Shown one piece after another: positions 23,949 through 47,688 of a stretch of 64,000 nt of DNA. Origin of the DNA: Anaerovoracaceae bacterium (GTDB lineage Bacteria; Bacillota; Clostridia; Peptostreptococcales; Anaerovoracaceae). The stretch is from NCBI GenBank assembly GCA_045114615.1, contig JBGUKU010000099.1, positions 1,385 to 65,384 of the forward strand, read 5' to 3'. The translations under genes and the position numbers were made by a program. Every line of letters begins with the position of its first letter. Position 1 is the first letter of the stretch. The notes under the pieces are model-generated. The model saw only the letters and a list, made by a program, of their open reading frames with translations. It searched no databases and had not been told where the DNA came from.

Positions 23949-23968
23949 TTGTTATCTCTCCTTTGCGT

Positions 23969-25366: not shown

Positions 25367-25384
25367 TTTATTCCTCCATTGATA

Positions 25385-26500: not shown

Positions 26501-26517
26501 TTCTTTACCTCCCGGTA

Positions 26518-26883
26518 TTATTCTACGTAAGCTACAGTCTGGCCTGATGTGGTGGCTTCTCCTTCTGAAACAACGATCTTGCTGACTGTGCCGTCCTTAG
26601 GTGCAACGACAGGGATCTCCATCTTCATGGCCTCGAGTACGATAATTGTGTCTCCGCTCTTGACCTGCTGTCCCTCATTTGCGACGATCTTGAAGACCTT
26701 ACCGGCAGTACCGCATACGACCGGATCGCCCTTTCCTTTTCCGCCGCCGGACTTGCCTGCCGCTTTTTTAGGTGCAGGAGCTGCTGCTGCCTTCGCCGGT
26801 GCTGCAGGAGCTGCGCTGCCGTCTGCCTTTTCTATTTCAACTTCGAATTCTTCGCCGTTTACTCTTACGATGTATGTCTCCAT
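26518..26883 (-). CDS. Biotin carboxyl carrier protein (stand-alone biotinyl domain)
   Basis: 121 aa. Ala/Pro/Lys linker followed by the biotinylation motif [10 protein letters not shown]. Confidence 0.9.
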
Positions 26884-27173
26884 GTTGCCCTCCGTACATT
26901 TCTGACGATGTATCCTTCTTCAGGTACACCCTCTTCATCTTTTAGTTGCTGATGGATCGCTGCCATGATGGCGGCAACGACTTCAGGCCTGATGCCCTCA
27001 GGTTCTTCAGGCTCTGCCGCTGCTGCAGCGGCCTGAACTGCCGGTTTTCTAGGCGCAAATGCCTTACCAAGCAGCCAGATGCAGATCGAAATGAATATCA
27101 GTACGCAGAATACCGTGCCCATTCCGATAAGCGTGTATAGCAGCGCGGTTAAGAATATCTGTCCTAAACTCAT
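26865..27173 (-). CDS. Decarboxylase gamma subunit (OadG family membrane anchor)
   Basis: 102 aa. Single N-terminal TM segment with GMGTVFCVL, an Ala/Pro/Glu linker and a basic C-terminus (IVRNVRR). Overlaps the BCCP start by 19 nt. Confidence 0.75.
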   Translation of the reverse strand: MSLGQIFLTALLYTLIGMGTVFCVLIFISICIWLLGKAFAPRKPAVQAAAAAAEPEEPEGIRPEVVAAIMAAIHQQLKDEEGVPEEGYIVRNVRRATWRHTS

Positions 27174-27181
27174 ATCATCAC

Positions 27182-29928: not shown

Positions 29929-29955
29929 GAGACCCTTCTCAGGGTCTCTTTTTTT
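29929..29955 (+). terminator. Rho-independent terminator of the aminotransferase gene
   Basis: GAGACCCT-tctc-AGGGTCTC followed by TTTTTTT. The hairpin overlaps the stop codon of the convergent minus-strand gene. Confidence 0.75.
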
Positions 29956-32581
29956 CGAGCAGCTTCATAAGTATCTGTACTTCTTTAGTCTTTTCAAGTT
30001 TATCATAAAATTCCGATGAGAACTCCTCACCGTCAAAGTCATGAGCAGTGATTACGAATTCTTCGAGCTGTGCTGTCTCAAATCTGAGCAGGCCTGTTTC
30101 TTCATTGTATTCCGCTCTATATGCTTTTATCGTCTCTTCAGATGTCTTGTCTTCTTCAGCAAATACCGCATACAGCTGTCTGTCTCTGAAATCTTCCGGA
30201 AGCTCGTAATCCATGACCACTTCTACCGGCATTCCCAGTTTTGTTAGAGCCGTACCGTTTTTATATGCTGAAAGTACATAATACAGTGCCTCTTCTGCAT
30301 TATCTTTTCCGTCGTTAAGATCGTACATGTCGACTGCAAGGCTGATCGTACTGCCGGATGAATTGCTGACTTTTACCGGTCCGGAATTACCAGATTTAAC
30401 AGCTTTATTTGGCTTAACCGTCCTGGAATCATGTGTTTTTTTCGTGTCGTCTGACTTTACAGTATCAGGTTTGCTATCCGTTTTATCAGACTCGTCCGGT
30501 TTGCTTATGAGTCCGGTTCCGGTAAGGATTCTTTTTGCATTTCCTCCGATCGTTCCTGATCCGGTACGGGAGGAAATCGTAGTTGTTATCACCGAACCCG
30601 GCGCCGGTTCATGAATGCCTATATAATCAGCTTTACGGATCAGATAGATATTATCGGCAGAAATCTGTTCACCCGGACTACGAAGCACTGTGACTGTAAG
30701 CCTTCCGTTTATGTATCTGAAAATCTGATAGACTTCATTAACTCCCCCATAACCGTATTTTTCATGCAATACATCGTAGGATATGACCTTATCATCCCCT
30801 GCATCAAAAGCGTTGAACGGATCAAGCATGATATATTCCCCGCTTTCATAGGACGCTGTATGTCCGTAAAAGTCATTTCCGTCAAAATACGTGTGTTCAA
30901 AGAAGTTTAACGATACAACAGGTATCTCCTTCTGATCAGGAACAGTAACCAGATCCTTTGGTCCCATGAATACCGGCCCGCCGGTACCCATGGATACAGT
31001 TCCTGATCCGCTGTAATCGAATACTACAGGCGCTCCTTGTCTTCCATTGTAATCGCAGCTGCCGGTTTTTGCTCCATTCAGCAATTTGAAATTTTCCTCC
31101 AGATCTATTACTCCGGACCTTAAATACAATTCTCCTCTGTCAACAGATTCTGTAAGCTTCAGTTCATCGCTGCGGATTCCCCATCTCCCGTAAATATCCA
31201 GCCGGTCACCGTCCTGCATTATAATGTTTTTGATAACAGAGCCATGTTCGTAGTATAGTTCAGAGCTGCCGGTGTTTGTGAGTTTTTCGATCTGGCAGCT
31301 TCCATTCAGACTCAGAATGGAATCTTTGATTTTGATATTCAGCTCCTGCCCCTTATTTAGCCGGATCAATGAATTTTCAAGAACACCACTCCCCGAATAA
31401 TCACCATCGATATCAATGATATATCCTTTGAGTTGCCCTGATGTGATCCTGCCGTCATTAACAAGGTTCTTAACTACCTCTAAACCATTTACGACCTGGG
31501 TTATTAAAGCTCCATTCTCCAAAACAAGGTTGTCGACAGTGAGATGGCCATTGAAAACAGCACTATCTGTATATTTTTCACCTTTCTTCCATTCCTCACT
31601 TCCCCTCTCCATAAACTTGTAGATAGGATCACCGTTCTCATCATAATTTATATTTACAAATAACGATGTGATCCTGAGACTGGAGTTCCCTGGCAATACG
31701 AGCGTTGTTCCTTCCGGTAAAACGATCTCATCATCGATCACGCCTGTAACACTGCCATTGATAAGCTTGTAACTTCCATCATCCTGTCGCAGAAACAGTG
31801 CAGCACTTCCGCCATCTTCACCATAAAACTCAGTAACGGAGTGCAGGTTAAGCGCACTGTATTCAGAAATTTCAATTTTGTCGATCAGTATGATACCGGT
31901 ACCAATGATATCGATCTGCCCGTCAAACGAAAGTGTGCCTACTTTGCTGATACCTGTAGTAACAATGGTCACGCCGGTCCCGTTTGCCGTAATATCCGTT
32001 TTTTCTTTGAGCCCATCCAGAACAATGGTATTGTTGCTGCTGTCATAACTCCATCCGTCTCCGGATCCGTTTGAGCTGCCATCCAGCGTGGTTCCTGCAA
32101 TGGTTATCTTCTTTTCAGCAGGTGTACCTAAAGTTTCAGAACCCTGAGAAGCAAGGCTTTTACGTAAAGTGATGGCCGCCGGCTCTGAAGTTTTTTCAGA
32201 AGATTCAGGAGTCGCATCTTCCGGTTCAATACATGTCTGATCTGCATCTGCCGGTCCGTCTATTCCGGTCTCAGTTCCGACTGCATCCTGGATCTGCTCC
32301 TCCGGTACTTCAGCTGATTCGGATCCTGACTGCACCTGCTCTTCCTGCGCTGCCGTATTTTCTATTGTCTCCTGTACAGGTGTGCTTTCCGGTGCTTCTG
32401 CTTCTGTATTCTGAGATGCAGCGTTTTCAGAGACATGGTCAGCAACATCCTGTGAAGAACTGCCGCACTGCTCCTCTGCAGCAATATCCTCAATATCCTC
32501 TGCAAATACGACACATGCAGAAGGAATGACCATCAGCATGACCAAAACCATGCAAAGTCCTTTTCTTATAATTCTGTGCAT
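29939..32581 (-). CDS. Large secreted protein B (paralogue of 35509-38154): signal peptide + acidic low-complexity linker + beta-rich repeat region + conserved acidic C-terminal module
   Basis: Start refined to ATG 32581 (MHRIIRKGLCMVLVMLMVIPSACVVFA-ED), 7 nt after AAAGGAG. Colinear similarity to the other giant, e.g. KKITIAGTTLDGSSNGSGDGWSY...GTGIILIDKIEI and C-terminal LYAVFAEEDKTSEETI...FDGEEFSSEFYDKLEKT. No LPXTG motif and no C-terminal TM segment. Confidence 0.75.
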   Translation of the reverse strand: MHRIIRKGLCMVLVMLMVIPSACVVFAEDIEDIAAEEQCGSSSQDVADHVSENAASQNTEAEAPESTPVQETIENTAAQEEQVQSGSESAEVPEEQIQDAVGTETGIDGPADADQTCIEPEDATPESSEKTSEPAAITLRKSLASQGSETLGTPAEKKITIAGTTLDGSSNGSGDGWSYDSSNNTIVLDGLKEKTDITANGTGVTIVTTGISKVGTLSFDGQIDIIGTGIILIDKIEISEYSALNLHSVTEFYGEDGGSAALFLRQDDGSYKLINGSVTGVIDDEIVLPEGTTLVLPGNSSLRITSLFVNINYDENGDPIYKFMERGSEEWKKGEKYTDSAVFNGHLTVDNLVLENGALITQVVNGLEVVKNLVNDGRITSGQLKGYIIDIDGDYSGSGVLENSLIRLNKGQELNIKIKDSILSLNGSCQIEKLTNTGSSELYYEHGSVIKNIIMQDGDRLDIYGRWGIRSDELKLTESVDRGELYLRSGVIDLEENFKLLNGAKTGSCDYNGRQGAPVVFDYSGSGTVSMGTGGPVFMGPKDLVTVPDQKEIPVVSLNFFEHTYFDGNDFYGHTASYESGEYIMLDPFNAFDAGDDKVISYDVLHEKYGYGGVNEVYQIFRYINGRLTVTVLRSPGEQISADNIYLIRKADYIGIHEPAPGSVITTTISSRTGSGTIGGNAKRILTGTGLISKPDESDKTDSKPDTVKSDDTKKTHDSRTVKPNKAVKSGNSGPVKVSNSSGSTISLAVDMYDLNDGKDNAEEALYYVLSAYKNGTALTKLGMPVEVVMDYELPEDFRDRQLYAVFAEEDKTSEETIKAYRAEYNEETGLLRFETAQLEEFVITAHDFDGEEFSSEFYDKLEKTKEVQILMKLLEKKRP

Positions 32582-32597
32582 AACAGGTCTCCTTTCT

Positions 32598-34661
32598 TTA
32601 GAATAACTGCATCTCATTGATAACTGCATTTATTTCATCGCTGATCATTCCGGCATCTTCCTGTGCCTCCAGATCGCGTTTTATAGTATCAGCCTCTCCA
32701 AGTCCCGATGACGCTATTTCCCTGAACAGGCTGACTGCTCTATCGCTGTTGCCGGAGTACAGACATGCATAGGCATAGTTCAGTTTTACCAGCATGTTAT
32801 CCGGCTGGAGTTCGAGAGCTGACGATGCGGATGCGAGCGCAGCATTATAGTCTCTCAGGTGGATAAGTTCATAATATGAACGCCAGGCGAGGTACTGAGC
32901 CCGGTGATACTCTCCGAGAGACTCTGACACCTGACTGTATTCCCCCAGCCCCCGAGCGAAAAGCCTTTCTGACTTGTCGTATTCGTGCGCCTTGAATGCG
33001 TTTTCGCCGGTATTGAGCAGGCTTACCGCATATGCTGCGCGGTCCGGATCCGAACCTGTTTTTGCATATATCTTTCCGTAGACATCCGATGCATCAGAGT
33101 AATACTCATCAGCGGTGATGTAGTTTCCGCGGATATTGTGGCTGAGTCCTCTGTTGTTATAAAGCTCCGCCAGCATCTGCTGATATGAAATGTTTTCTTC
33201 GTCCTGTGCGAGTATCTCTGCATCTTTGATGGCTTCCTCGTAATAGCGGTCAGCATCTTCATAGTTTCCCGCATCCGTCAGACATGCGGCAAGCATGGAT
33301 GCGATCTGGATGCTGTTACTCCTGTTCTGGAGCGAATCGTTCATTCCTACAAGGGCATTAATGTCTTCATATGCATCTGACAGCATATCTGCTGCATCAT
33401 TGTACAGACCTGATCTATAGAGGAGTACTCCGTAATCGTATTTTACAGTACTGAGTGCATCAAGCACGTCTGCAGACTTATCCATACTGTCAAGAAGTCC
33501 CAGGCTCTGCTCAAAGCGTTCTGCCGCCAGATTTCCGTTTCCAAGATCGATAGCATTGCTTCCGGAGTTGAAGATCATTCTCGCCAGAACAAGATCGTCT
33601 CCGTGTGCAAGCGCCTGCTGCATGCCGATGGCCTTGTCGTAATCCTCTCCTGCCTCTTCATAGCGGCCTGCGGAGTTCAGTATGATAGCCCTGTTGTTGT
33701 ATCCGGATGCTGTACCGGCCTCCGCTTTTTCATATCCGGATCCTGCCAGCGTCTCGAACAGTGAAATGGCTGTGGTCTCGGAATCAAGAGCTTCATTATG
33801 CATTCCGAGAACATTCTCTGCCGTAGCCAGCTTTTCATAGTTTACGGCAGCCTCATACTCTCCTGCCTCTTTGTTGCGTGTCAGCCTGAGGATCTTATTT
33901 ATATCCTCAGTATTGTTGTACAGTATGTCACGGATACGGCTGTATGATCCCGGAACATCCGCAAGGCTGTCAGGCAATCCGTAGGTTAGATCATTCAGGA
34001 TCTGCATTGAAGCTGCTTCACGTTTTTCAGCTTCATTTCTGTAATTCTGTGCGCGTATCATCAGGCTCAGCGAGACTGCAAGTATCAGGACAAATGCAGC
34101 GGCACAGGTGACAGCACGTTTTACGACGTTTCTGTTCTGTTCTAACTGGTGCTCTCTGGCCAGCTCCTCCTCAGTGCAGCCGGCAATGCATGCGATCACC
34201 TTGAGCATCTCAGATTCGGCAAGAGACATCATCCTGCGAGTATCATTCCCCGGAACACGTATATCCATGAGCCTGTCCATTATATCCGGTATCAGCTTCA
34301 TGGATGCAGGGAATGAGGTATCAGGATCTCCGCTTATGAGTATCGGGAATACATGATCTGCTCTGCCGAGCTCAATGAAAGTTGCCACCTCCCTGTCTAC
34401 CCATTCAGACGAAGGAGTATCGGTCGAGCATACCACTACAAGGCAATCTGTGGAATGCAGAGCCTTGTCTATCGTATCGGTAAGTATCCTGCTTACAGGC
34501 AGCTCTTCAGTATCCCTGAAAGCACGCCTTACTCCATGCATTCCCCTTTCACGCAAAGAGGCAGGCAGACGGTAATTCTCTGCCAGATTGAACAGTTTCT
34601 GCGTTATCTCACTGTCCAGCGGCCTGTGGCGGTAGCTGAAGAACACATCGTAATCAAACAT
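32598..34661 (-). CDS. TIR domain - single TM - TPR-repeat protein
   Basis: 687 aa. N-terminal DVFFSYRHRP...CLVVVCSTDTPSSEWVDREVATFIE...VFPILISG is a TIR-domain signature (betaA FxSY, W-x3-E). One TM segment at aa 183-202. The C-terminal ~440 aa consist of repeated A/Y/N-rich 34-aa TPR-like units (YNNRG.., EEA/YEEAI..). GGGAGG RBS. Confidence 0.8.
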   Translation of the reverse strand: MFDYDVFFSYRHRPLDSEITQKLFNLAENYRLPASLRERGMHGVRRAFRDTEELPVSRILTDTIDKALHSTDCLVVVCSTDTPSSEWVDREVATFIELGRADHVFPILISGDPDTSFPASMKLIPDIMDRLMDIRVPGNDTRRMMSLAESEMLKVIACIAGCTEEELAREHQLEQNRNVVKRAVTCAAAFVLILAVSLSLMIRAQNYRNEAEKREAASMQILNDLTYGLPDSLADVPGSYSRIRDILYNNTEDINKILRLTRNKEAGEYEAAVNYEKLATAENVLGMHNEALDSETTAISLFETLAGSGYEKAEAGTASGYNNRAIILNSAGRYEEAGEDYDKAIGMQQALAHGDDLVLARMIFNSGSNAIDLGNGNLAAERFEQSLGLLDSMDKSADVLDALSTVKYDYGVLLYRSGLYNDAADMLSDAYEDINALVGMNDSLQNRSNSIQIASMLAACLTDAGNYEDADRYYEEAIKDAEILAQDEENISYQQMLAELYNNRGLSHNIRGNYITADEYYSDASDVYGKIYAKTGSDPDRAAYAVSLLNTGENAFKAHEYDKSERLFARGLGEYSQVSESLGEYHRAQYLAWRSYYELIHLRDYNAALASASSALELQPDNMLVKLNYAYACLYSGNSDRAVSLFREIASSGLGEADTIKRDLEAQEDAGMISDEINAVINEMQLF

Positions 34662-34663: not shown

Positions 34664-35509
34664 CTAGCCTCCCGTTACAGGCTGACCGCTCTCAGCCGTA
34701 TCATCAAGACCGAGCTCCTCAAGGGAACTCCTTGCATTATCCACTGCCTGCTGTATGTATACCAATGCCTGCGGTTCATCTGCGAATGCCGCCGGCAGTT
34801 CGTTCATCGTCCTCTCAGCGATCTCACGGCACAGTTTTGCCTGCTGATCTGCTATCTCACCTTCTGTGCGGGCAACATGTCCCAGATATGCAAATATCCC
34901 TGCCGCTCCCAAGCAGACAGCAGCGATCACAGATACCAGCATAATTATCGCTTTTCTGCGGCGCATGCGGTGGCGCTGCTCAAGGGCATCAGGATGCAGT
35001 CCCAGGATTGATGCGATGATCCTGACAGTCTCATAGCTCAGCGCTTCCCTCCAGCGCGAGCGGGTCTCTGCGCGAAGATCTGACGCTACAGGCTCTATGG
35101 TCTCGACGCGCTCAACGACAGTCATGTCAGGAAGTATCTTCTGAACGGTCTTTTTCTCAATAAAAGACTCCGGGAAAGAGTCGATAGGCTCTCCCCGGAC
35201 TATCACAACGATAATATTATTATCTTTTCCGATCTTGCGGAAATACTCAAGGCGCTCAAGTATGAACGGACTGGCCTTTGTTTCAGGCGAACAGAGCACT
35301 GCCAGAAAGCGGCTGTTGTCTAAGACATCACGTGTATCATCATCAAGCTCTCTGCCGGACACATCAACATACACCCGCCTGTAATCCAGTCCGCTGTCCG
35401 GAAGGACCACTCCTGACGGGAGTCTGTACTTGCGTATGCTGTCCGCAAGCTTATTTGCGACTGATGCATCCCCTGCTACGGCAATGATGCAGATATCAAA
35501 GTTCCGCAT
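34664..35509 (-). CDS. Divergent TIR-like domain - single TM - short ectodomain protein
   Basis: 281 aa. The N-terminal ~115 aa are colinear with the TIR of the next gene (FDICIIAV / KYRLP / FLAVLCSPETKASPFILERLEYF / IIVVIVRGEP). A basic cluster RHRMRRRK precedes the TM segment (aa 187-209), followed by a ~70-aa C-terminal tail. The ATG overlaps the upstream stop (TAATG). Confidence 0.65.
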   Translation of the reverse strand: MRNFDICIIAVAGDASVANKLADSIRKYRLPSGVVLPDSGLDYRRVYVDVSGRELDDDTRDVLDNSRFLAVLCSPETKASPFILERLEYFRKIGKDNNIIVVIVRGEPIDSFPESFIEKKTVQKILPDMTVVERVETIEPVASDLRAETRSRWREALSYETVRIIASILGLHPDALEQRHRMRRRKAIIMLVSVIAAVCLGAAGIFAYLGHVARTEGEIADQQAKLCREIAERTMNELPAAFADEPQALVYIQQAVDNARSSLEELGLDDTAESGQPVTGG

Positions 35510-38154
35510 TATCCTTCTTTTCTTTCTTTCAGATGTTCTATGAACAGCTTTGCCTCGTCCGTCTTCTCGAGCTCATCATAGAACTCAGGTGAGAATTCCT
35601 CGCCGTCGAATTCAAGTGCGGCGATAATAAACTCTCCCAGCTGTGAAGTCTCAAATCTGATCGTTCCGCTCTCTTCATCGTATTCGGCTTTTACAGCCGC
35701 AAGTGTCTCATCCGAGGTCTCATCTTCGTTGGCAAAGACCGCATAGAGCGGTTTATCCCTGAATTCCTCCGGAAGCACATACTCCATTTCCGCCTCGACA
35801 ACCCCGCTGAGTTCGGTGATCTGCGCACCGTTTATATATGACGTAAGGTTATAATACGGCGCTTTTTCGGCATTCTCAACGCCTTCGTTAAGATCGAACT
35901 CATTGATCTGAAGCACAATTGTATCACCTACTGTAGTGACTGCTGCGATCGTGTAATCACCGGCCGGTTTGCCAGGGTCCGGATCAACCGGTTTTGGCTC
36001 AGGCTTTGGTTCAGGCTTTGGTTCAGGCTTTGGTTCAGGTTTTGGTTCAGGCTCGACAGGATCCTCTGACGAGAACCTTGAAATGCCTGTTCCTGTAAAG
36101 ATAGGTTTGGAATTACCGCCAATATTTCCCGAGCCGGTCTGTGATGCATGTGTCGTAGTCATGGCAGATCCTCCAATGTTCTCTTCCGTAGCGGTCCGAA
36201 CCACCTTTCTTATCAGAAACACACCGTCAGCATCAGTGCTTTGCTGATAGCCATATCCAAGAATAGTCATGGACAATCTGCCGTTTTTGCAGCGGAGCAC
36301 CTCGAATAAAAATGGGGAAACCCCAAACTCTGATAATATCTCTTCAGGGACATAGGAGCTAAGCAGGTCAGTATAAGTAATCAAACCTTCTTCGTTTTTC
36401 TCTGATACATTATAGTCTGCAAGCTGAGTGTAAACCTCTTCTTCATTCACGTTTTCTTCCCATGTGTAATATAACAAGGGTTTCCTGGTATCAAGAAGAG
36501 CCAAAGACACGACCGGGATAGAATCAGCCTCCGGCATGATAATATCTTTCGGACCGAGGTATACAGATCCGTTTATCCCGTATGATACAGCACCTTTCCC
36601 GCTGTAATCGAACACCGGCCCTCCATATGTTTGGTTGCTTACTGTGGCTTCATTCACTTTAAGATCCGCTTCGAGTTCTGTAATAGCAGATTTGATCACA
36701 ACAGAGACTTTTTCGATCTCGTCAGTGATCTTAACAATACGATTGTCATTAAAAATATTTCTGCTGTATATACTCAACGAACCATTGGAAGAAGACTTTA
36801 TCTTCTTTAATTCAACATTACCCTCATAATATAGTTCGCAGTTTCCCGTGATGTTTAATTCATTGAGCGTATAATCACCACGCTCCAGAGAAACATTGGC
36901 ATCCCTGAGCTTGATGCTCGTTGTCTGGCCTTGGCTAAGTGTAATTATGGAATTCTCGATAATACCTGATCCCGAATAACCGACAGCGTCTACAAGGCCG
37001 CCGTTGATGACTCCATCATTTACCAGACTGCCGACAACTTTGAGGCTTGATATGATCACATCCGATACTCTATTGAGTTTGATCGTTGCGCCTTTTTTGA
37101 CAGTCAGATCGTTTACCTTCAGATTAGCTATGTAGTACCTGATAGCAGCTGCTTTCAATTCTTCTTCACTAAAGCCGGAATAGTCCCTTATGATAGTCTC
37201 ATTACCGTCTTCATCCGTCTCAACTACGACACCAAGAGCCTGAAGTTCAAGATAAGAGTTCTCAGGAAGTACAAGCTTCACATCTTCGATCTTATAATTC
37301 TCATCGACAATGCCTTTGACCGTTCCGTTAATAAGCATATATGATTCATCATCCTGTTTAAGGAATACTGCAACGCTGCCCCCGTCCTCTCCATAATAGT
37401 CTTTAAGAGGAAGAAGATTGAAGGAGCACCCTTCTGCAAGCTCAACCTTATCGATGAGAAGGATCCCGGTCCCGATAACATTGATGTCCCCGTCACAGGA
37501 AAGCGTTCCGATCCTGTTTAAACCGGTGGAAACGATATCGACTCCAGTGCCGTCTGATGTGATATCAGCGCTGTCTGTATAGTCCCTGAGAACTATCCTG
37601 CCGCTGTCCTTTTCGTAAGTCCATCCGCTTCCGCTGCTGTCGGCAGTGCAGTTGAGCTTAGTTCCGGCAATGGTAATCGTTTTATCTGTCTGAGCTGCTG
37701 TTCTTACTGATGCTGCAGCTGCCGGAGCAGGTGCATAAGCCGCTTTTGCCACAGCAGGTGCAGGCGCCGTATCTTTCGGATCTTCTTCAGGCCCGGACGG
37801 TTCAGGTGCAGCAGCTGACTCCGCCGTATCCTGCTCAGCAGGCTCGTACGGCTCGGGTTCTGCAGCCACTTCTTCAGCTGCAGTTCCGGCCTTTGCTTCA
37901 GATGCTTCTGGTGTTTGCATAGCTGCATTCTCAGATGATTCAGGTATTTGCGCAGCCGCACTCTCGCTTGATGCAGGAGCTGCAGGTTTCTCAGCTGCTG
38001 TCTCCGCCTCAGGCTCAGGCTGCACTGCTTCAGTATCAGCTGCTGTGTCCTGATCCTCCGGTAAAGTGTCGTCTGCAAAGACCTGCCACGTAAAAGGCAT
38101 GATCATAAGCATGATCATTAATATGCTGATGGTTTTGCGCGCATTACTTTTCAT
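35509..38154 (-). CDS. Large secreted protein A: signal peptide + Ala/Pro/Glu linker + beta-rich repeat region + (PEPK)n linker + conserved acidic C-terminal module
   Basis: 881 aa. Signal peptide MKSNARKTISILMIMLMIMPFTWQVFA-DD and AAGGGGGA RBS. Paralogous over its full length to 29939-32581. No sortase motif or C-terminal anchor. Confidence 0.8.
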   Translation of the reverse strand: MKSNARKTISILMIMLMIMPFTWQVFADDTLPEDQDTAADTEAVQPEPEAETAAEKPAAPASSESAAAQIPESSENAAMQTPEASEAKAGTAAEEVAAEPEPYEPAEQDTAESAAAPEPSGPEEDPKDTAPAPAVAKAAYAPAPAAAASVRTAAQTDKTITIAGTKLNCTADSSGSGWTYEKDSGRIVLRDYTDSADITSDGTGVDIVSTGLNRIGTLSCDGDINVIGTGILLIDKVELAEGCSFNLLPLKDYYGEDGGSVAVFLKQDDESYMLINGTVKGIVDENYKIEDVKLVLPENSYLELQALGVVVETDEDGNETIIRDYSGFSEEELKAAAIRYYIANLKVNDLTVKKGATIKLNRVSDVIISSLKVVGSLVNDGVINGGLVDAVGYSGSGIIENSIITLSQGQTTSIKLRDANVSLERGDYTLNELNITGNCELYYEGNVELKKIKSSSNGSLSIYSRNIFNDNRIVKITDEIEKVSVVIKSAITELEADLKVNEATVSNQTYGGPVFDYSGKGAVSYGINGSVYLGPKDIIMPEADSIPVVSLALLDTRKPLLYYTWEENVNEEEVYTQLADYNVSEKNEEGLITYTDLLSSYVPEEILSEFGVSPFLFEVLRCKNGRLSMTILGYGYQQSTDADGVFLIRKVVRTATEENIGGSAMTTTHASQTGSGNIGGNSKPIFTGTGISRFSSEDPVEPEPKPEPKPEPKPEPKPEPKPVDPDPGKPAGDYTIAAVTTVGDTIVLQINEFDLNEGVENAEKAPYYNLTSYINGAQITELSGVVEAEMEYVLPEEFRDKPLYAVFANEDETSDETLAAVKAEYDEESGTIRFETSQLGEFIIAALEFDGEEFSPEFYDELEKTDEAKLFIEHLKERKEG
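35989..36054. repeat. 12-bp in-frame tandem repeat (about 5 copies of AGGCTTTGGTTC) encoding (PEPK)n
   Basis: Direct reading gives cggttttggctc aggctttggttc aggctttggttc aggctttggttc aggttttggttc. On the coding strand this is EPEPKPEPKPEPKPEPKPEPKP. Confidence 0.9.
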
Positions 38155-38169: not shown

Positions 38170-39723
38170 TCAGACAGCAGACCTGTCTGCGACTCCGGCA
38201 AGCATCTCCCATGCAAAAGCGTCTTTTTCTTTATCTTCTTCACTGAGTTCTGAATACGGGAGCATCATAGGATGCCTGCGCATCAGATCGTTCCTTTCAG
38301 GTGAGTATGTCCAGTTGTACATCTGGTGGTATCTCATCCAGCGTCTGTGCTCCATCTCCCTGCATATGTCCCTCTTATCAGGGTCTGCATCGCTGAACAC
38401 ATCATATGCTCTGCGGCAGTTCTCTTCCGTGAGCTCCGTGATGCTGTCGTCATCGAGAAGATATCGGACCTTTACGATCATGTGATCGGCCGCAGCTATG
38501 TTGGAACGTTTCAGATGATCGCTGAGATCGCTCCATCCGCCAGTTTTGCCAGATCCTTCGTTATAGATATCGTTGAGCGTGACCGCAAGCCTGTTGATAT
38601 CGTCCCTGACAAATGCTCTCATCGTAAATATATCTTTGCTGCTGCCAAAACAGCTGATCTTTTCAACTGTATTGTTTAACCTGACATGGACTTTTGCAGC
38701 TGTCGGGAACAGCATCATGATCTCTTTATAAGTTGCCAGATCGCTCCTGTCATCATCCTCACAGATGATGATCCTGTCGGCATTGCGTATGATCTCCGGA
38801 TGATACTCCCAGCATTCTTCGTGGAGGAACAGTGCGTCATCTTCAGGATCTCCGCCGCATAAAGTTCTGACTGCCTCACGGTGTGACTTCCTGAAATCCG
38901 AGGAATCTCCAAAGACATGGTAGCAGATGTATCTGCCCGGCTCGAATACATTGGTAAGGAGTCCCCTTTCAAGCAATTCTGCTGCGATCTTTCCGCTGCC
39001 GATCAGAACTATGGTCTTCTCGTCTTTGCGTAAAGGATGATCTCTCCAGTAGCACCTGCTGATGATCTCTTTTTTGCTGAATGTATGAAGGCTGCCCGAT
39101 ATCTCGTCAGACCCGAAGTCTGTAAGGCAGTACGTATCTATATCCAGACCGGCAGCATCTGTCGCCTGACGGTAATTCTCCCATGAGTCTTCACCCAGGC
39201 AGAAATACTTTATATCCTGCCCGCTCCCCTTCAGATCGATGAGTTCTTCAGGATTGCAGTCAAGGCGCACAACAGCCCTGCCGCCTATCCGGTTTTCTGC
39301 CGAGCGGCGGAAAATAATGGCGGCGTCAGGGTCATCAGCAAGAACGGATCCTGCAAATACAGCAGACTGCTCGTTCTCCTCACTGATCGCATACCATCTG
39401 CGGTCCCTTAACGACCGGAGTCTGAATCGCGGTCTTGCCTGTCCACTGATAAAACTTATCAGTACACCTACAAGTGCGGTGAACACCCCGAGACTGCAAA
39501 GGGCAAGAATTACACCAAGTGCTTTTCCTGCAGGGGTCACAGGGGAAAGATCTCCGTAACCTACTGTTGTAAGTGTAATGACAGAGTACCAGATGGCATC
39601 CCCTATACTGTGTATGGACGAACCCTCTGCCTTTGATTCGGCAGCCAGCAGCAATATAAGTACCGCCGCATATGCAGCTATAATCGCTATCACTATCCGT
39701 ATGTTTCTTTTTCTGCTGCTCAT
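38170..39723 (-). CDS. 2-TM K+ channel (TVGYGD filter) with cytoplasmic Rossmann-like domains and a C-terminal RyR domain
   Basis: 517 aa. TM1, pore helix, TTVGYGD (codons at 39550-39567), TM2. TIVLIGSGKIAAELLERG is Rossmann-like. C-terminal EMEHRRWMRYHQMYNWTYSPERNDLMRRHPMMLPYSELSEEDKEKD matches the RyR-domain (PF02026-type) signature as I remember it. The start overlaps the upstream stop (ATGA). Confidence 0.8.
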   Translation of the reverse strand: MSSRKRNIRIVIAIIAAYAAVLILLLAAESKAEGSSIHSIGDAIWYSVITLTTVGYGDLSPVTPAGKALGVILALCSLGVFTALVGVLISFISGQARPRFRLRSLRDRRWYAISEENEQSAVFAGSVLADDPDAAIIFRRSAENRIGGRAVVRLDCNPEELIDLKGSGQDIKYFCLGEDSWENYRQATDAAGLDIDTYCLTDFGSDEISGSLHTFSKKEIISRCYWRDHPLRKDEKTIVLIGSGKIAAELLERGLLTNVFEPGRYICYHVFGDSSDFRKSHREAVRTLCGGDPEDDALFLHEECWEYHPEIIRNADRIIICEDDDRSDLATYKEIMMLFPTAAKVHVRLNNTVEKISCFGSSKDIFTMRAFVRDDINRLAVTLNDIYNEGSGKTGGWSDLSDHLKRSNIAAADHMIVKVRYLLDDDSITELTEENCRRAYDVFSDADPDKRDICREMEHRRWMRYHQMYNWTYSPERNDLMRRHPMMLPYSELSEEDKEKDAFAWEMLAGVADRSAV

Positions 39724-41582
39724 TTTACTGACATTTCTCCTTGTTTAAGGATCTCAGGAATAATCAGAACGTTATTGATGTCATACTGCTTGTAGTCCAC
39801 AGCACGCCCTGTAATGGATCTTTCTTTTTCTGACAGATCATCAAGCTCATCCCACGGTATCAGGCAGGCATGAGTGCGGTTTTCAGAATCCTTGAACAAC
39901 CTGATGCCCGGGAGGCCTTTTTCAATGTGTTTTCTGTATGTATCAGCTCTTTCATCGAGCTCAGCGCTGCTCATAGGTGAGTATCCCATCACGAAGTGGA
40001 ATGCATTCCATCTGAGATGCTCCATCTCGCCTAATACTTCCATAACATCCGCGGCCGGCGGCCAGCAGCCTGCCATTACCTCGTCTGTTGTCAGACCTGA
40101 TGCACTTATGAATGCCGGTATGAAATCAGCAGAAGCGCGTGATGACATCTTGCTGAACGAGTCGCATGCCACCCATTTCTCCCAATCTGTCCTGTCAGAA
40201 TCATCATAAGTGCTGTTAATGATGATCGCATCACGGTCTGCTTTCTGTGCTGAAAGATACTCGAGTGAATAGATATCGGCGGTGATGATCGGACTGCCGA
40301 CTGTCTCCTGATATCTGACACCATCTTTTCCGCACCTGATGACACAGATATGTTCAGCTTTACGGCGCTTCAGATACATCATAAGATTATCCGAGATCTC
40401 GCGGTCGCTCTCTTCACTTCCGGTGCAGACCGCTATAAGCTTGAGAGTACTCAGCCTGTTATCGACGTAGTGATAGAACTCAATGCTCCTGCCATCCGCG
40501 TTGAAGCTTCTGATATCATAGTTTTCAAACATCGATGAGCACTCGGCTTTCATGTACCCTGCCTCTTTTTCAAAATTCGGTGAAAAAACAGCAGCGTGGA
40601 ATGTGCTGCCTGCAAACTGTCCGTTCATCAGCAGCTGTTTCAGTACAGCCTGTCCATGTCTGCCGAAGCCCACTATGGCGCAGTCAAAATCTTCCTGAGC
40701 ACGGCCGTCACTGCCGAATCTCACAAGTTCCCAAGGCGGGCAGGTCTTTATCAAAGCCCTTGCTGAAAGCATGGCACTGTCATAAACGTTGACGTAACCG
40801 TATCCGTACTGATCCGCAGATACCTGCAGCATCGAAGTTATGATATCTTCAGCTCCCGGAAGAGTAATGGCTGTTTTTTCAGGAGAGACGCCTGCTTCTT
40901 TAAGGGCATTTTTCAAGCCAAGAGCATAAAACAGATCTTTGTCCTCTTCATCCATTGCGAACACTTTTATATTGCGCCGGCTGACCCTGAGCCTTCTCAT
41001 CACGGACTTGTCGGACGATACAGCTGCGGGACCGCTTATAACGGACATCCCCATGTTGTTGAGATCTGTCACAGTGGAAGGATCGACATTTTCAGAAACG
41101 AAAATCACAGAACCGGCACCCCGTTCACGGCATTCCTTGCCCAGGCTTATGCTGCGGTCGTTGATTCCGTAGATCAAAGTCAGATCACCTTTTGCAGAAA
41201 GGATCATGCGCAGGTATCTCAAAGCTTCCTCACCGAGCGTGAACATCGCAGCACTGGCCATAGAATAAAACGCCAGAAGATGTATGATCCAGAATAATAC
41301 GATCCTGAACGGTGTCCCGACAGGTGAAGTGCCTTCTATTGATCCGTAATCATTTATGCCGACGAACATTTTTATCACACAAAAAGGCGTGCGGATCATG
41401 CTGAGCCCGATGTCACCGGTGCTTTCAGCAAATCCAACGCCATATATAAGTACACCTCCGGCAAAGGCTATGATCATGCATATGGTTGTGAGCCTGGCAG
41501 AAAAAGATGGTTTCAGAGCAAGGTTAAGAACCATTGCCAGAAGCAATGCAGTTGACAGGATAACAACAGTCACACTCGTCAT
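39720..41582 (-). CDS. Multi-TM protein with TrkA-N-like Rossmann domains and a C-terminal RyR domain (no pore signature)
   Basis: Start refined to ATG 41582, 5 nt after AGGAGG (track start is GTG 41588). ~5 N-terminal TM segments. AIVGFGRHGQAVLKQL is a Rossmann motif. C-terminal EMEHLRWNAFHFVMGYSP...HACLIPWDELDDLSEKE is an RyR-domain signature. Confidence 0.75.
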   Translation of the reverse strand: MTSVTVVILSTALLLAMVLNLALKPSFSARLTTICMIIAFAGGVLIYGVGFAESTGDIGLSMIRTPFCVIKMFVGINDYGSIEGTSPVGTPFRIVLFWIIHLLAFYSMASAAMFTLGEEALRYLRMILSAKGDLTLIYGINDRSISLGKECRERGAGSVIFVSENVDPSTVTDLNNMGMSVISGPAAVSSDKSVMRRLRVSRRNIKVFAMDEEDKDLFYALGLKNALKEAGVSPEKTAITLPGAEDIITSMLQVSADQYGYGYVNVYDSAMLSARALIKTCPPWELVRFGSDGRAQEDFDCAIVGFGRHGQAVLKQLLMNGQFAGSTFHAAVFSPNFEKEAGYMKAECSSMFENYDIRSFNADGRSIEFYHYVDNRLSTLKLIAVCTGSEESDREISDNLMMYLKRRKAEHICVIRCGKDGVRYQETVGSPIITADIYSLEYLSAQKADRDAIIINSTYDDSDRTDWEKWVACDSFSKMSSRASADFIPAFISASGLTTDEVMAGCWPPAADVMEVLGEMEHLRWNAFHFVMGYSPMSSAELDERADTYRKHIEKGLPGIRLFKDSENRTHACLIPWDELDDLSEKERSITGRAVDYKQYDINNVLIIPEILKQGEMSVK

Positions 41583-41655: not shown

Positions 41656-44466
41656 CTATCGAAGTACAGATGTAAGAGTCCTCATCAGCACGCCTACATC
41701 AACCGGTTTGGCCACATGACCCTGCATGCCGGCTTCCGCAGCAGCATCTACGTCCTCTTTAAAAGCATTCGCAGTCATTGCTACAATAGGTATCCCGGCA
41801 AGTGCTTTGTTATCAAGGTTCCGTATCGCCCTCGTAGCCTCATAGCCGTCCATGACAGGCATCTGTATGTCCATCAGGACAGCATCGTAGTATCCCGGCT
41901 CTGAAGTCTCAACCATTTCCACTGCGATCTTACCGTTTTCAGCTGTTTCCACATTAAATCCCGCCTGCATGAGTATCATGTTGGCAATCTCCATATTTAC
42001 CAGATTGTCTTCTACAAGAAGGATCCTCTTTGTACTGAAGTCGATTTCCGGCTCAGAAGCCGCTTCACCCGATGCTGAGCCGTCACGGAGTTTTTCCGAA
42101 TCCGGCACATCACCCGCTTCGGCAAGCTTGAACTTCAGCCTTATCACAATCTCGGTCCCGCTGCCCGGAGCAGTCATGACCTCTATGGTTCCACCCATCA
42201 GGTCTACAAGACTCTTTGTGATGGAAAGCCCGAGTCCTGTTCCTTCTATTCCGCTGACAGTAGATGTGCGCTCGCGTTCGAAGGCATTGAACATCCTTTC
42301 GGCAAATTCTTTCGACATGCCTATGCCGCTGTCCTGCACCCTTATTTCATATGTGCCGTAGCCATTGTCGGTCGTTCCGGACTGCCAGATCGAGGCACTG
42401 ACTGAACCGCCTTCCGGCGTGAATTTGCACGCGTTGCTCAGAAGGTTAAGGAGTACCCTGTTGACGTTCTTGCGATCGCACCATACATAGCGATCCTCAA
42501 TCTGATTCGTGTGCACGCTGAAGTTCAGGTTCTTGTCCTTCATCTGCTCAGAGAACAGCTCGCTTATGCCGTCAAATACTGCGTAGAGATCTACAGGAAC
42601 GTATTCCAGCTCCATCTTTCCGTTCTCAATGCGGCTCATCTCGAGAATGTCGTTGATGAGCGCCAGAAGATGCTGACTGGAGTTTTCTATCTTATCGAGA
42701 TATTCTTTGACTTCATCCGATGCCTCGCCGTTTCTGGCAAGATTTGTGTAGCCGATTATGGCGTTCATCGGGGTGCGGATGTCGTGCGACATGTTGAACA
42801 GGAACTGGCTCTTGGCAAGGCTGCTTTCAACCGCATGTATCTTTTCGCGCTCGGCCGCGGCGTGTTTTTCCCTTACGAGGTTCTGCACGTAAAGCATGAT
42901 TGCCAGGCCTGCGAATACCAGGAGAAGCATTATGACTCCTCCTCCTGTGAGCACCTGTCTCATCTGATCCGCATCAGGAGCTGCCAGTACCCGCTTGGCG
43001 AGCCACATCAGCGCTGAATACAGAAGCAGAGCGAACAATATTATGCCTGACGCGGACAGTCCGCTGTACTCGGTAAGTGAGCTCCTCTCTACCGTACGCC
43101 AGTAGAACACGAATCCCAGCAGGCACCAGAGTGACAGAAGCAGGAACGCCTCGCTGCCCATGGCCTCCATCGCCAGGATCCTCGGCACCATCTGTACTAT
43201 AGCGAATATCACAGAGATGGCGGCACCGGTCATGCCGGTGATCATCACCCTGTTATTGCCCTCCATCCGGGCTATCTTATACGCAGCTGCTGAAGTATAT
43301 CCGAAACCTACAATGGCACCGAATGATGTCAGGTCTACAAACCATATGAGGGTGTTGCGGCCGAAAAGCGACAGCACTATAGCTATTGCCATTATGAAAA
43401 GTATGCTGTATGTCGTGCTTGAGAACTTTTCTGAAAGGATGCGGTCCTCGGCCATAGTTGAGAGCACGCGTGTTGTAGCCCGGTAGCCTCCGATAATGCC
43501 TGTCATTATTGCTGAGACGGCGGTGACTGTCATCAGGATGAGACCTGCCTTTCCCATGACGGATCTGGCCACGTGGAACGTAGGGACTGAATCTATGCCT
43601 TTAATCCCGTCCAGCCCGGCGACGTAATCCATCCAGGATGAGAATCCGTCAGGTACGGAAGCAACACTTATGAGCGTCATGGCTATATACGCCATCGTCG
43701 CTATTATTATGGACGTGACGATTATCTTTCCCGACTTTCTGACAGGGAAATTGAAGTGAGCCGTTTCGAAAGATGTGATCTCAAATCCGACGAATGCCCA
43801 CGGAGCCAGAATGGCTATGCTGAATATCGCGTTAGCTCTGCTGATCCCGGCGGTGCCAAATGTCCAGATGAATCCGCTGGAGAATGCATGCGGCAGGCAG
43901 AATACCGAGATTATCGCTATACCCGTTACAAGGATGAGAGAAAACACAGTAAACATCCTCTGAAGAACTGCCTTTGCCGCGATGAACATCAGGCCTACTC
44001 CCGCCAGCACCGCTACAGACAGGAAAGTCTCTTTCAGATATATGGTGTTTCCCGCGACGACATAGCTGATGCCCTTCTGAGCCTCTTCGCCCATCAGAGT
44101 CCTCACTATGATGAACAGCGCAGTGCCGTTCAGGAATACTATCGTCAGATATGACAGGCAGAGAAACCACGAGCTTATGAACGCGTGATCCCTTCCGAAT
44201 GCTTCCTTGGTGTATGTGTAGATACCGCCTGTGATCGAAGTCCTTCCCATGAGGTATGAGATGTTCCTTGCTACGATCAGCATTATTACCATTCCTATGA
44301 GCATGGCGATCAGCGTTCCGGCCGGTCCCGCGACAGGCAGGAACGTCGTTCCGGGCATGGCAAATACGCCCCAGCCGACCATGCAGCCGAAGGCCATCGC
44401 CCACACATCGATCGGCGAAAGATACCTGTCCAGTGGTTTCGTTATATCTCTATCATGCATTTCCAT
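41656..44466 (-). CDS. Hybrid sensor histidine kinase with an N-terminal APC-family amino-acid-permease-like domain
   Basis: 936 aa. Residues 1-~440 resemble APC permeases (LSPIDVWAMAFGCMVGWGVFAMPG...AGPAGTLIAML...GGIYTYTKEAFG), with extra TM segments after them. Then HisKA (FLFNMSHDIRTPMNAIIGY), HATPase (GTGLGLSI) and a C-terminal REC domain (ILLVEDN...DIQMPVMDG). Confidence 0.8.
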   Translation of the reverse strand: MEMHDRDITKPLDRYLSPIDVWAMAFGCMVGWGVFAMPGTTFLPVAGPAGTLIAMLIGMVIMLIVARNISYLMGRTSITGGIYTYTKEAFGRDHAFISSWFLCLSYLTIVFLNGTALFIIVRTLMGEEAQKGISYVVAGNTIYLKETFLSVAVLAGVGLMFIAAKAVLQRMFTVFSLILVTGIAIISVFCLPHAFSSGFIWTFGTAGISRANAIFSIAILAPWAFVGFEITSFETAHFNFPVRKSGKIIVTSIIIATMAYIAMTLISVASVPDGFSSWMDYVAGLDGIKGIDSVPTFHVARSVMGKAGLILMTVTAVSAIMTGIIGGYRATTRVLSTMAEDRILSEKFSSTTYSILFIMAIAIVLSLFGRNTLIWFVDLTSFGAIVGFGYTSAAAYKIARMEGNNRVMITGMTGAAISVIFAIVQMVPRILAMEAMGSEAFLLLSLWCLLGFVFYWRTVERSSLTEYSGLSASGIILFALLLYSALMWLAKRVLAAPDADQMRQVLTGGGVIMLLLVFAGLAIMLYVQNLVREKHAAAEREKIHAVESSLAKSQFLFNMSHDIRTPMNAIIGYTNLARNGEASDEVKEYLDKIENSSQHLLALINDILEMSRIENGKMELEYVPVDLYAVFDGISELFSEQMKDKNLNFSVHTNQIEDRYVWCDRKNVNRVLLNLLSNACKFTPEGGSVSASIWQSGTTDNGYGTYEIRVQDSGIGMSKEFAERMFNAFERERTSTVSGIEGTGLGLSITKSLVDLMGGTIEVMTAPGSGTEIVIRLKFKLAEAGDVPDSEKLRDGSASGEAASEPEIDFSTKRILLVEDNLVNMEIANMILMQAGFNVETAENGKIAVEMVETSEPGYYDAVLMDIQMPVMDGYEATRAIRNLDNKALAGIPIVAMTANAFKEDVDAAAEAGMQGHVAKPVDVGVLMRTLTSVLR

Positions 44467-47400: not shown

Positions 47401-47671
47401 GAATATGAGACAGACGATTATCTTCCTTTATCGCTTTCAGCACATCAAGGCCGGACATTCCCGGCATCAGAATATCGAGCAGGACCAGTGAAAGCGTCTC
47501 ACGGTATTGCTCTATCATCTCCAGTGTCTTTATACCGTCCTCAGCAAACAGAACCTCATAGTCATCTCTGAGCATCTCCCCCAGAATCTCACGGTTGATC
47601 ATCTCATCGTCTGCTATCAGGATCTGTCTCTTTCCGTTGACAGTATGAAATACTTCATGGCCTTTAAGCAT
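44453..47671 (-). CDS. REC - degenerate GGDEF - EAL - TM - ~190-aa loop - TM - GGDEF protein (c-di-GMP turnover)
   Basis: 1072 aa. REC (ILIADDE...DILMPGMSG). First cyclase-like domain with RQEADTF in place of GGDEF. EAL domain (EALVRW, DDFGTGYSS). Two TM segments flanking a helical loop. C-terminal intact RIGGDEFAV. Confidence 0.85.
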   Translation of the reverse strand: MLKGHEVFHTVNGKRQILIADDEMINREILGEMLRDDYEVLFAEDGIKTLEMIEQYRETLSLVLLDILMPGMSGLDVLKAIKEDNRLSHIPVIVMTAEKETEVDSLRLGAADFIPKPYPAVDVVHARVLRTIELSEDREIIQSTEKDLLTGLYNKEFFYRYAEQYDHYHKDKEMDAVIIDVNHFRMVNERYGKSYGDEVLRLIGEQLLETVSVRGGLACRQEADTFLLYLPHGGSLEDILDGASKRLAEQSLSDNRIRLRMGVYECADRSIDIERRFDRAKMAADSAKGSFTKTIGIYDDMLHEKQLYAEQLIEAFPAAIREKQFQVYYQPKFDVRPDTPVLTSAEALVRWIHPELGMISPGDFIPLFEENGLIQQLDYYVWEESARQIRDWKDRLKYSVPVSVNVSRIDMYDPNIVETLEELTERHGLSGRDMLLEVTESAYTQDSAQIIETAQRLREKGFQIEMDDFGTGYSSLNMISTLPIDALKLDMQFIRNAFKEDGNTHMLEVIIGISDFLSVPVIAEGVETEEQLQALKNIGCDIVQGYFFSKPVPSEKFEPFILQKKEADAAYKKAASVQKNARPESDESRRVKLDLMRRNESAQGDSDIKETYIDDDSHSAIQLKTATVFFTILAFLAAAALLFADISVTKGYQYMEAASDRYIAAQIAASDMEAGSDYLTDRVRCFVVTGEMEYLEDFIEEVEVTRRRDKAVESLGELLGEDESGALDNLNAALASSNELVVYENKAMRLILEAGKYDMSTVPANIANVQLTPEERRLTPEQMKDLAETLVFDNNYMHYKDRIRENVGLCTKSLIRSSSQELEKASTKLSLLVKLQTWITVLFLLIVLAIVMIITRMIRRPLTNMVKLMQNQEIIPPTGVEELRFVTRTYNQILQENRAAREKLSHEASHDALTGLFNRGAYDLIMESVDTKHMALILIDVDYFKTVNDTYGHAVGDRVLKRVAELLKTSFRSVDVLCRIGGDEFAVIMTRANSSMSQLVLNKMNRVNEILQHPKDDLPPVSLSVGIAFSDREDPQGDIFSDADSTLYKVKEAGRKGCAVFGYEKTLTDGNA

Positions 47672-47688
47672 CTTATCTCTCCTTTATG

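Follow-up and report, generated by a model that had tools for sequence, protein, structure and literature searches.

A ryanodine receptor-type domain potassium channel pair linked to TIR genes in Clostridia: a candidate effector of TIR-made nucleotide signals

In a 64,000-nucleotide stretch of an Anaerovoracaceae genome (assembly GCA_045114615.1, contig JBGUKU010000099.1, positions 1,385 to 65,384 of the forward strand; hereafter the window) we analyzed a tightly packed group of six genes, here named g1 to g6. It combines two channel-like subunits carrying C-terminal domains of the ryanodine receptor (RyR) type, g1 and g2, with two genes of the TIR kind, g4 and g5. The linkage of this channel pair to TIR genes was strong and was observed in both directions of our surveys. 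We lean, with a little more than even confidence, towards the reading that the TIR protein makes a signal derived from nicotinamide adenine dinucleotide (NAD+), that this signal opens the RyR-domain ion channel pair, and that the genes form a cassette of rumen and gut Clostridia. Comparative genomics and new biochemistry on the RyR domain family lend good support to the hypothesis of a nucleotide-gated channel effector, which an earlier sequence-only reading of the window had raised; the function of the cluster is unproven.

Linkage of the channel pair to TIR genes

For the forward survey one genome per species was scanned, which gave 77 full-length homologues of g2. Open reading frames around them were called and queried with the proteins of the window and an iterated TIR hidden Markov model (HMM). 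Loci were termed pair when g2 was accompanied by g1 or a g1-like partner and solo when g2 stood alone. A first automatic count placed a TIR gene next to 15 of 27 pair loci versus one of 49 solo loci (Fisher p = 8e-8). The single solo positive was locus L028, where g1 is truncated at the contig start, and a refined TIR model added the positives L076, L080 and L081. In 76 species genomes, and with five pair loci cut by contig ends left out, a TIR gene adjoined 19 of approximately 25 evaluable pair loci (L015, L016, L017, L021, L028, L031, L038, L041, L072, L073, L075, L076, L078, L080-L084 and L091) versus none of approximately 47 solo loci, and among the roughly 750 genes around the solo channels no TIR gene was found. 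The solo channels belong to a clade with 33-37% identity to g2 which lacks g1 and occurs in variable contexts (among L022-L090, for example L030, L039, L049, L063 and L065).

The reverse survey searched metagenome contigs starting from the TIR-TPR protein g5. Of about 13 loci with sufficient flanking sequence, 10 contained g1 and g2; two TIR-TPR loci, L102 and L109, are possibly without the channel. The gene g4 lay immediately upstream of g5 wherever the upstream sequence was present and readable (47 of 62 metagenome loci). The co-occurrence of the pair with TIR genes, which the sequence-only reading had suggested as a check, was thus borne out by both surveys.

The arrangement g1-g2-(g3)-g4-g5 recurs amid unrelated flanking genes in Mogibacterium and Oscillospiraceae. 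It was present as g1-g2-g3-g4-g5 in L001 (81% identity to g2) and in L006 (Oscillospiraceae, 46%), as g1-g2-g4-g5 in L003 (67%) and in the order g3-g4-g5-g1-g2 in L008 (48%). In total, six gene orders were found, including g2-g1-TIR, TIR-g2-g1, g2-TIR-g1 and g2-g2'-TIR. These six orders and the five TIR architectures described below, all grouped round one constant partner, argue against an inherited chance adjacency. The complete order g1 to g6 was also identical in a rumen-type metagenome contig (L097) with 100% identity across g5. By the names of its closest homologues, the organism of the window is a Mogibacterium-like Clostridium of rumen or gut.

Two Christensenellales-type loci have, after the g2-g1 pair, a protein of 423-451 amino acids without a Pfam match in place of a TIR (L077:4361-5629 and L079:4727-6079). 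This protein might be an alternative signal producer.

The channel subunit g2 and the pocket of its RyR domain

Pfam recognized an Ion_trans_2 domain in g2 with 60.7 bits, and the pore matched those of KvAP and KcsA. Across 98 g2 homologues the filter residues T52, T53, V54, G55, G57 and D58 were invariant and Y56 was kept in at least 90%. The KcsA-like pore with TTVGYGD that had been proposed before therefore stands, but the position then given for the motif, 39550-39567, covers TVGYGD, with the full TTVGYGD reaching to 39570.

The predicted structure of g2 agrees with a tandem arrangement of RCK domains behind the pore. The AlphaFold2 (AF2) model reached a predicted local distance difference test (pLDDT) value of 86.7 and a predicted template modelling score (pTM) of 0.78. 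In Foldseek its top match was the Geobacter channel GsuK (E 2.3e-6), followed by MthK, Slo, TrkA, CASTOR and the Bt-hRyR_12 chimera 6uhi. The second RCK domain holds an invariant G242-x-G244 motif (LIGSGKIA). The first RCK domains of the channel subunits are without a glycine motif.

The C-terminal RyR domain of g2 passed the Pfam threshold (PF02026, 29.1 bits versus a gathering score of 27.4), and this stretch matched the solved chimera 6uhi with E 1.5e-14. The C-terminal module of 156 residues belongs to a family of modest size, with 244 clusters at E<=1e-10 in a set of 1.8 billion representatives; in most of the full-length members (~500-590 amino acids) among the best 150 matches it was likewise C-terminal.

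What such a domain may bind has become clearer from phages. In May 2026, gp78 of mycobacteriophage DyoEdafos (RyDEP, PF02026) was reported to hydrolyse 2'/3'-cyclic ADP-ribose (cADPR), with other phage RyR-domain homologues binding 2'/3'-cADPR at nanomolar affinity (Lopez Rivera et al., bioRxiv 10.64898/2026.05.28.727677, PMC13232231). The catalytic dyad of RyDEP consists of H75 and D117; W78 stacks against the adenine, and the phosphates are contacted by H100 (PMC13232231). The remark of the sequence-only reading that nucleotide binding by the RyR repeat was not established has been overtaken by these results. Bacterial channel-fused RyR domains are not mentioned in the RyDEP preprint (PMC13232231).

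In a tblastn search against phages, gp78 was the second-best match of the g2 RyR segment. BLASTP aligned residues 72-127 of gp78 with residues 456-512 of g2 (46.2 bits, E 5e-11, 35% identity), and the alignment contained a single one-residue gap after D117, so that it ran ungapped through all four pocket residues. These pair at identical spacing as H75/H459, W78/W462, H100/H484 and D117/D501. H459, W462, H484 and D501 were invariant across the 98 g2 homologues; in the pair-locus homologues of the genome survey the two His and the Trp were kept in 17 of 17 and the Asp in 16 of 17. With all four ligand-binding or catalytic residues kept, the RyR pocket of g2 is a candidate site for a cADPR isomer. 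Solo-clade channels kept H, W and H as well; 40 of 47 had Arg at the Asp column and an Asp in the following column, perhaps through a shift in the alignment.

A 543-amino-acid homologue of g2 without a recorded RyR match and without g1 was found at L010:8942-13592. It is accompanied by a divergently transcribed 280-amino-acid protein and by a 703-amino-acid protein with a weak match to HSP70/actin-like ATPases. The sizes of these neighbouring genes mimic g4 and g5, and no homology to them was detected.

The filter-less partner g1

A clear RyR domain had earlier been claimed for both g1 and g2. For g2 this holds at the Pfam level, but in g1 the domain went unreported by Pfam even at E<=10, and a g1-family profile searched against the PDB reached the RyR chimera at E 0.34 only. 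The assignment in g1 comes by way of g2: hhalign aligned residues 121-596 of g1 with the entire cytoplasmic part of g2 (97.4%, E 1.4e-11). Because this profile-profile alignment extends across the cytoplasmic part, we take g1 for a paralogue of g2 whose C-terminus is a divergent RyR domain. The H, W and H residues of the pocket were kept in 22 of 22 g1 homologues, while N, S, K or E occupied the position of D117.

The TrkA-N-like Rossmann domains likewise assigned to both proteins are found in the predicted structures, but not at the level of sequence matches. TrkA_N scored 18.4 bits in g1, below the cut-off of 23.8, as its sole Rossmann-type sequence match, and g2 gave no Pfam match to TrkA_N. 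The tandem RCK-like domains of g1 carry a GFGRHG motif, and G305 and G310 of the GxGxxG-type motif in the second of them are invariant. The AF2 model of g1 (pLDDT 90.7, pTM 0.79) had full-length GsuK as its best fold match in Foldseek (E 4.7e-5), with the gating rings of Slo, MthK, TrkA and CASTOR next.

The lack of a pore signature had led to the proposal that g1 may be a regulatory subunit. FVGIN stands in g1 at the position of TVGYG, so that there is no K+ filter, and Pfam reported no pore match. However, the N-terminus is modelled as helix, helix, short helix, loop and long helix (three or four helices, M1-P-M2-like), and the Foldseek alignment to full-length GsuK is approximately 90 columns longer than that to RCK-only chains. 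On the basis of the predicted structure and this longer alignment, the description of g1 as a channel-like paralogous subunit lacking the filter seems more apt than that of a purely soluble regulator.

In two pair loci the TTVGYGD channel is accompanied, in place of g1, by another filter-less protein with two or three transmembrane helices (L076:4982-6613 and L080:11443-13068). Its RyR domain was significant in Pfam (32.9 bits for the L076 partner), and both partners hold the complete H/W/H/D set. As these partners differ from g1, the pairing of a K+ subunit with a filter-less RyR subunit has arisen or diverged more than once.

TIR proteins of the cluster and of related loci

TIR genes had been proposed downstream of the channel pair, and g5 proved to encode a true TIR protein. 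Its Pfam matches to ThsB_TIR (34.9 bits) and TIR_2 (31.2 bits) were above the cut-off, and TPR_12 scored 66 bits. Aligned to ROQ1, E91 of g5 in a W-V-D-R-E motif falls on E86 of the WCLEEL motif, which we take to be the catalytic residue. The TIR domain is N-terminal and followed by one transmembrane helix (184-202), and for the C-terminal TPR domain an external location is predicted.

The matches of g4 to Pfam TIR families remained below the cut-off, whereas a custom TIR HMM built from the neighbours recognized the g4 family with E 1e-12 to 1e-18. A transmembrane helix (188-206) and a short tail outside are predicted. Since Arg stands at the position of the catalytic Glu (Arg or Phe within the family) and the preceding Trp is lost, g4 is judged to be a catalytically dead TIR-like paralogue.

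Five architectures of TIR partners could be distinguished by Pfam: TIR-TPR together with g4, as in the window; TIR-WD40/PQQ with 1016-1104 amino acids (L082, L028); TIR-Sel1 with 467-482 amino acids (L078, L084, L091); TIR-PT linker-LRR/DUF285 with 655-764 amino acids (L076, L080, L081, L083); and short TIRs of 181-201 amino acids (L072, L073, L075). Every TIR partner other than g4 kept the catalytic Glu of W-x-x-x-E and the preceding Trp, across all five architectures. The four single-pass TIR proteins in which a PT-rich linker precedes BspA-type LRR/DUF285 repeats (L076:6580-8871, L080:13068-15323, L081:11368-13512 and L083:8025-9989) scored 51-71 bits for TIR_2 and 198-334 bits for DUF285, and each adjoins a RyR channel pair.

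A single hydrophobic helix at about residues 165-215 was present in g4, g5 and all tested alternative partners except that of L028, where a helix at ~245-263 was seen at a lower hydropathy threshold only. An Arg/Lys cluster lies N-terminal of the helix and a TPR, Sel1, WD40 or LRR repeat domain C-terminal of it. Given the positive-inside rule and the need of a TIR domain for NAD+, the TIR domain is predicted to be cytosolic and the repeat domain external, with the short TIRs tail-anchored.

Proposed mechanism and alternative explanations

The following sequence of events is proposed. The protein g5, with its cytosolic TIR domain, transmembrane helix and external TPR domain, would sense an extracytoplasmic or envelope cue together with g4 and often with g3 and g6. 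From NAD+, its TIR domain would make a signal derived from ADP-ribose, in the simplest case a cADPR isomer, and the pockets of the RyR domains (R12-type) at the C-termini of g1 and g2 would read it. The two GsuK-like subunits probably co-assemble, and ligand binding would act on the RCK gating ring so that the pore opens, K+ flows and the membrane potential changes. The g2 subunit may also hydrolyse the signal and thereby reset the channel, because the complete His/Asp dyad of RyDEP is kept. We infer the identity of the ligand, its binding in the RyR pocket rather than at the RCK domains, a hetero-oligomer of g1 with g2 and the gating direction, and likewise the role, be it anti-phage defence or ordinary signal transduction. 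In its most specific form, which we put forward tentatively and as less probable than the general one, surface TIR receptors with LRR, TPR, Sel1 or WD40 repeats would sense the cue, possibly phage contact or g3, and a cADPR-type nucleotide would directly gate a heteromeric K+ channel via the R12 pockets.

Several observations weigh against this proposal. Six adequately flanked pairs (L019, L020, L025, L027, L077 and L079) have no adjacent TIR gene, and the approximately 47 solo channels, mostly Lachnospiraceae-type, have none within 10 kb; the channel family is therefore not strictly dependent on a neighbouring TIR. A comparison of the membrane domains of g1 and g2 by hhalign was not significant (E 0.34). 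The topology of the TIR partners is predicted from hydropathy and charge only. The phage precedents are soluble sponge or enzyme proteins and not sensors. A defence-island test with 136 neighbouring proteins from 18 loci gave only about 10 generic PADLOC matches; there was no meaningful PADLOC system match, and a Thoeris-like defence role is unproven.

Among the alternatives, sensing of NAD+ or ADP(R) at the Rossmann sites of the RCK domains is unlikely, although the most probable of them. The TIR would then act as an NADase and the RyR domain would serve dimerization or structure only. GsuK, the best fold match of both subunits, is a K+ channel activated by ADP and NAD+ (PMC3510474), and the GxGxxG-type motifs of the second RCK domains are invariant in g2 as well as in g1. 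Against it stand the absence of the glycine motif from the first RCK domains and the invariance of the RyDEP pocket residues, four in g2 and three in g1, which is hard to square with a purely structural domain. The same residues could mean that the RyR domains mainly degrade or buffer the signal, for self-protection or signal termination, while gating is controlled otherwise. We regard this as less likely still. The dyad is retained in 16 of 17 pair-locus homologues of g2, and proteins of the RyDEP family cleave or sequester 2'/3'-cADPR (PMC13232231), but the domain is permanently fused to a channel gating ring, the partner-specific pairing of g1 with g2 is conserved, and g1 is without the acid residue, so that at least one of the two domains would be non-catalytic.

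A further possibility, marginally more remote, is that the TIR proteins act as protein-protein adaptors which recruit or regulate the channel at the membrane with no nucleotide messenger, as in animal Toll-like receptor (TLR) signalling. All TIR partners are membrane-anchored beside a membrane channel and g4 is a dead TIR-like protein, as such a role would allow. However, the catalytic Glu and its Trp are conserved in every non-g4 partner of all five architectures, and the channel bears a pocket of the kind known to bind TIR products. That the channel genes and the TIR and secreted-protein genes are independent neighbours co-inherited in one lineage is very improbable. The existence of the solo clade and the two TIR-TPR loci that may lack a channel would fit such a non-functional adjacency, but it is largely refuted by the number of gene orders and architectures, by the unrelated flanks, by the absence of TIR genes around the solo channels and by the Fisher test of the first count.

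Relation to known systems

Compared with phage RyDEP, which belongs to the same PF02026 domain family and whose four pocket residues are all conserved in g2, the RyR domain found here is encoded by the host and forms the C-terminal part of RCK-gated channel subunits, whereas RyDEP is a soluble viral counter-defence protein. Furthermore, the domain of the cluster is genetically tied to TIR producers, and g1 is without the catalytic Asp.

In architecture the subunits are closest to GsuK (4gx0/4gx1/4gx5), the best structural match of both g1 and g2, which has a two-transmembrane pore and two tandem RCK domains per subunit (PMC3510474). GsuK is regulated by adenine dinucleotides and nucleotides. 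It lacks a RyR domain as well as a filter-less paralogue as partner, TIR genes do not adjoin it, and the identity amounts to 11-16%.

The combination of a TIR protein with a catalytic Glu and a membrane effector with a nucleotide-binding module resembles Thoeris in its logic of producer and effector. In contrast to Thoeris, the TIR proteins of the cluster are membrane-anchored, have predicted external repeat domains and are accompanied by a dead TIR partner. PADLOC, applied to the six window proteins, matched g5 weakly to ThsB with 14-18 bits and left g1 and g2 without a match. In the Thoeris survey, type X is composed of ThsB and an "ion channel" named ThsK and is the sole published type with such an effector (Yirmiya et al., bioRxiv 10.64898/2025.12.03.692087). 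The type X TIR was traced to a contig through a protein with 89% identity to the B. cereus Q1 entry of Table S1 in that preprint. The neighbour of the traced TIR was a 246-amino-acid protein with multiple transmembrane helices unlike g2, and we rejected the assignment of the cluster to type X. This presumed ThsK, so named from its adjacency only, had no Pfam match, no RyR domain and no similarity to g2. A plasmid search for ThsK with the type X TIR returned type II (Macro) systems only.

IMG/VR viral contigs contained no relatives of g2, and the flanks of the cluster in the window are metabolic (downstream, with aminotransferase and oxaloacetate-decarboxylase-type genes) and two-component genes. 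The Thoeris survey demanded enrichment near known defence genes (bioRxiv 10.64898/2025.12.03.692087), which may be why the cluster was not described in it. In the literature searched, full text included, we found no description of RyR-domain K+ channels with TIR neighbours; the Thoeris survey was covered in its text without the figures, so that an unnamed listing among its 29 putative effectors is possible.

The cluster also invites a comparison with animal receptors. Like the ryanodine receptor, it combines an R12-type domain, placed at the cytoplasmic face of a presumably tetrameric cation channel, with an ADP-ribose nucleotide derived from a TIR or NADase as candidate modulator. The animal receptor has a six-transmembrane Ca2+ pore and tandem repeats, whereas here a two-transmembrane K+ channel carries one RyR repeat per subunit. 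To our knowledge, it is not established that cADPR binds directly to R12 in animals either. With TLRs the TIR partners share the predicted layout of extracellular repeats (LRR in L076, L080, L081 and L083, TPR, Sel1 or WD40 elsewhere), a single transmembrane helix and a cytosolic TIR. They differ in their N-terminal TIR (type II orientation), which reverses the domain order, in that their TIR is predicted to be catalytic rather than an adaptor, and in the proposed output of a small molecule and a channel instead of a kinase cascade.

Gene arrangement and flanking regions

All genes from ~29.9 to 50 kb of the window are on the minus strand. The coordinates of the six cluster genes and of the domains discussed above are listed in Table 1.

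Table 1. Genes and domains of the cluster, in positions of the window
Feature	Position	Strand	Description
g1	39720..41582	minus	620-amino-acid membrane protein; RCK-like Rossmann domains (predicted); divergent C-terminal RyR-type domain
g1 C-terminal RyR-like domain	39723..40070	minus	~residues 505-620; EMEHLRW ... THACLIPWDEL; ~25-residue insertion
g2	38170..39723	minus	517-amino-acid K+ channel subunit; two-transmembrane pore, tandem RCK, C-terminal RyR
K+ selectivity filter TTVGYGD	39550..39570	minus	g2 residues 52-58
g2 tandem RCK-like alpha/beta domains	38644..39411	minus	~residues 105-360; from secondary structure, fold matches and invariant columns
g2 RyR (R12-type) repeat	38185..38391	minus	residues 445-513
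g3	35509..38154	minus	881-amino-acid secreted protein, signal peptide
g4	34664..35509	minus	281-amino-acid degenerate TIR-like protein, one transmembrane helix
g5	32598..34661	minus	687-amino-acid protein; TIR, one transmembrane helix, TPR
g6	29939..32629	minus	896-amino-acid secreted paralogue of g3; last gene of the cluster

The ATGA-coupled arrangement of the two channel genes described in the sequence-only reading was confirmed: stop and start overlap at 39720-39723, from which g1 and g2 are predicted to be translationally coupled. Most likely g1 starts at the ATG at 41582, which is preceded by a GGAGG site; the public protein P0241 is identical to g1 along its full 620 residues. The channel pair had also been placed directly upstream of the TIR genes. 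Both are in the same cluster, but g3 is located between them. The gap between g2 and g3 is 15 nucleotides, g3 and g4 overlap by 1 nucleotide, and g4 and g5 are separated by 2 nucleotides.

The secreted proteins g3 and g6, each of ~880-900 amino acids, share 37% identity and an acidic or Pro-rich N-terminal region; g3 has an (EPKP)n repeat at residues 699-725. For both there was no Pfam match and no NCBIfam family, and the NCBIfam search likewise gave no model for g1 or g4. While g3 was present in L001, L006, L008, L016, L021, L038 and L041, it was absent in L003 and L015. Proteins of the g3/g6 type stand in one to three copies beside many clusters but not all, with three tandem copies in L017. 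Thus g3 is a frequent, non-obligatory member of the cluster.

Upstream of g1 (41656-50001, minus strand) lie genes for a fusion of amino-acid permease, histidine kinase and receiver, for a REC-EAL-GGDEF protein and for a hybrid kinase. A REC-GGDEF-EAL gene follows the g1-g2 pair at L027:11656-15000, and a HAMP kinase takes this place at L019:6678-8126. This may reflect a loose association of the cluster with two-component and cyclic di-GMP genes or the mere abundance of such genes in Clostridia.

The downstream region (22731-28528) contains a block resembling Na+-translocating oxaloacetate decarboxylase (OAD beta, carboxyltransferase and an HMGL-like/PYC_OADA subunit) and two aminotransferases. 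The block is syntenic with the region following the cluster in L015 and L016, and the upstream flank varies among relatives. A perfect 8-bp GC-rich hairpin (GAGACCC-TTCT-CAGGGTCTC) followed by a T-run is located at 29929-29948, exactly at the end of g6, and may be a bidirectional terminator which closes the cluster. In a scan for promoters and terminators nothing exceeded the shuffled background.

Conclusions

TIR enzymes and messengers derived from ADP-ribose are central to immunity in bacteria, plants and animals, and a direct action of cADPR on ryanodine receptors has been argued for decades. We would class the cluster as a variant of TIR second-messenger signalling whose effector, a pair of RyR-domain RCK K+ channel subunits, is of a new type and whose TIR producers resemble membrane receptors; such a pathway looks previously undescribed in bacteria. 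That the fold of RyR Repeat12 forms a pocket for cADPR isomers was shown by the phage study of 2026 (PMC13232231). The cluster supplies what that study lacked, namely a cellular ion channel in which the pocket occurs and whose genes are linked to those of TIR producers.

A role of the R12 domain as nucleotide sensor of a channel is thereby directly testable in a small and tractable bacterial protein. If true, an ion channel would here for the first time be seen to sense a TIR product through a RyR-type domain, and the arrangement would represent a prokaryotic counterpart, possibly an ancestor, of the disputed link between cADPR and the ryanodine receptor in animals. The related loci add bacterial single-pass TIR proteins with predicted LRR, TPR, Sel1 or WD40 ectodomains, which have a Toll-like layout and are found outside defence islands. 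If their role is physiological rather than antiviral, TIR second-messenger signalling would extend beyond immunity.

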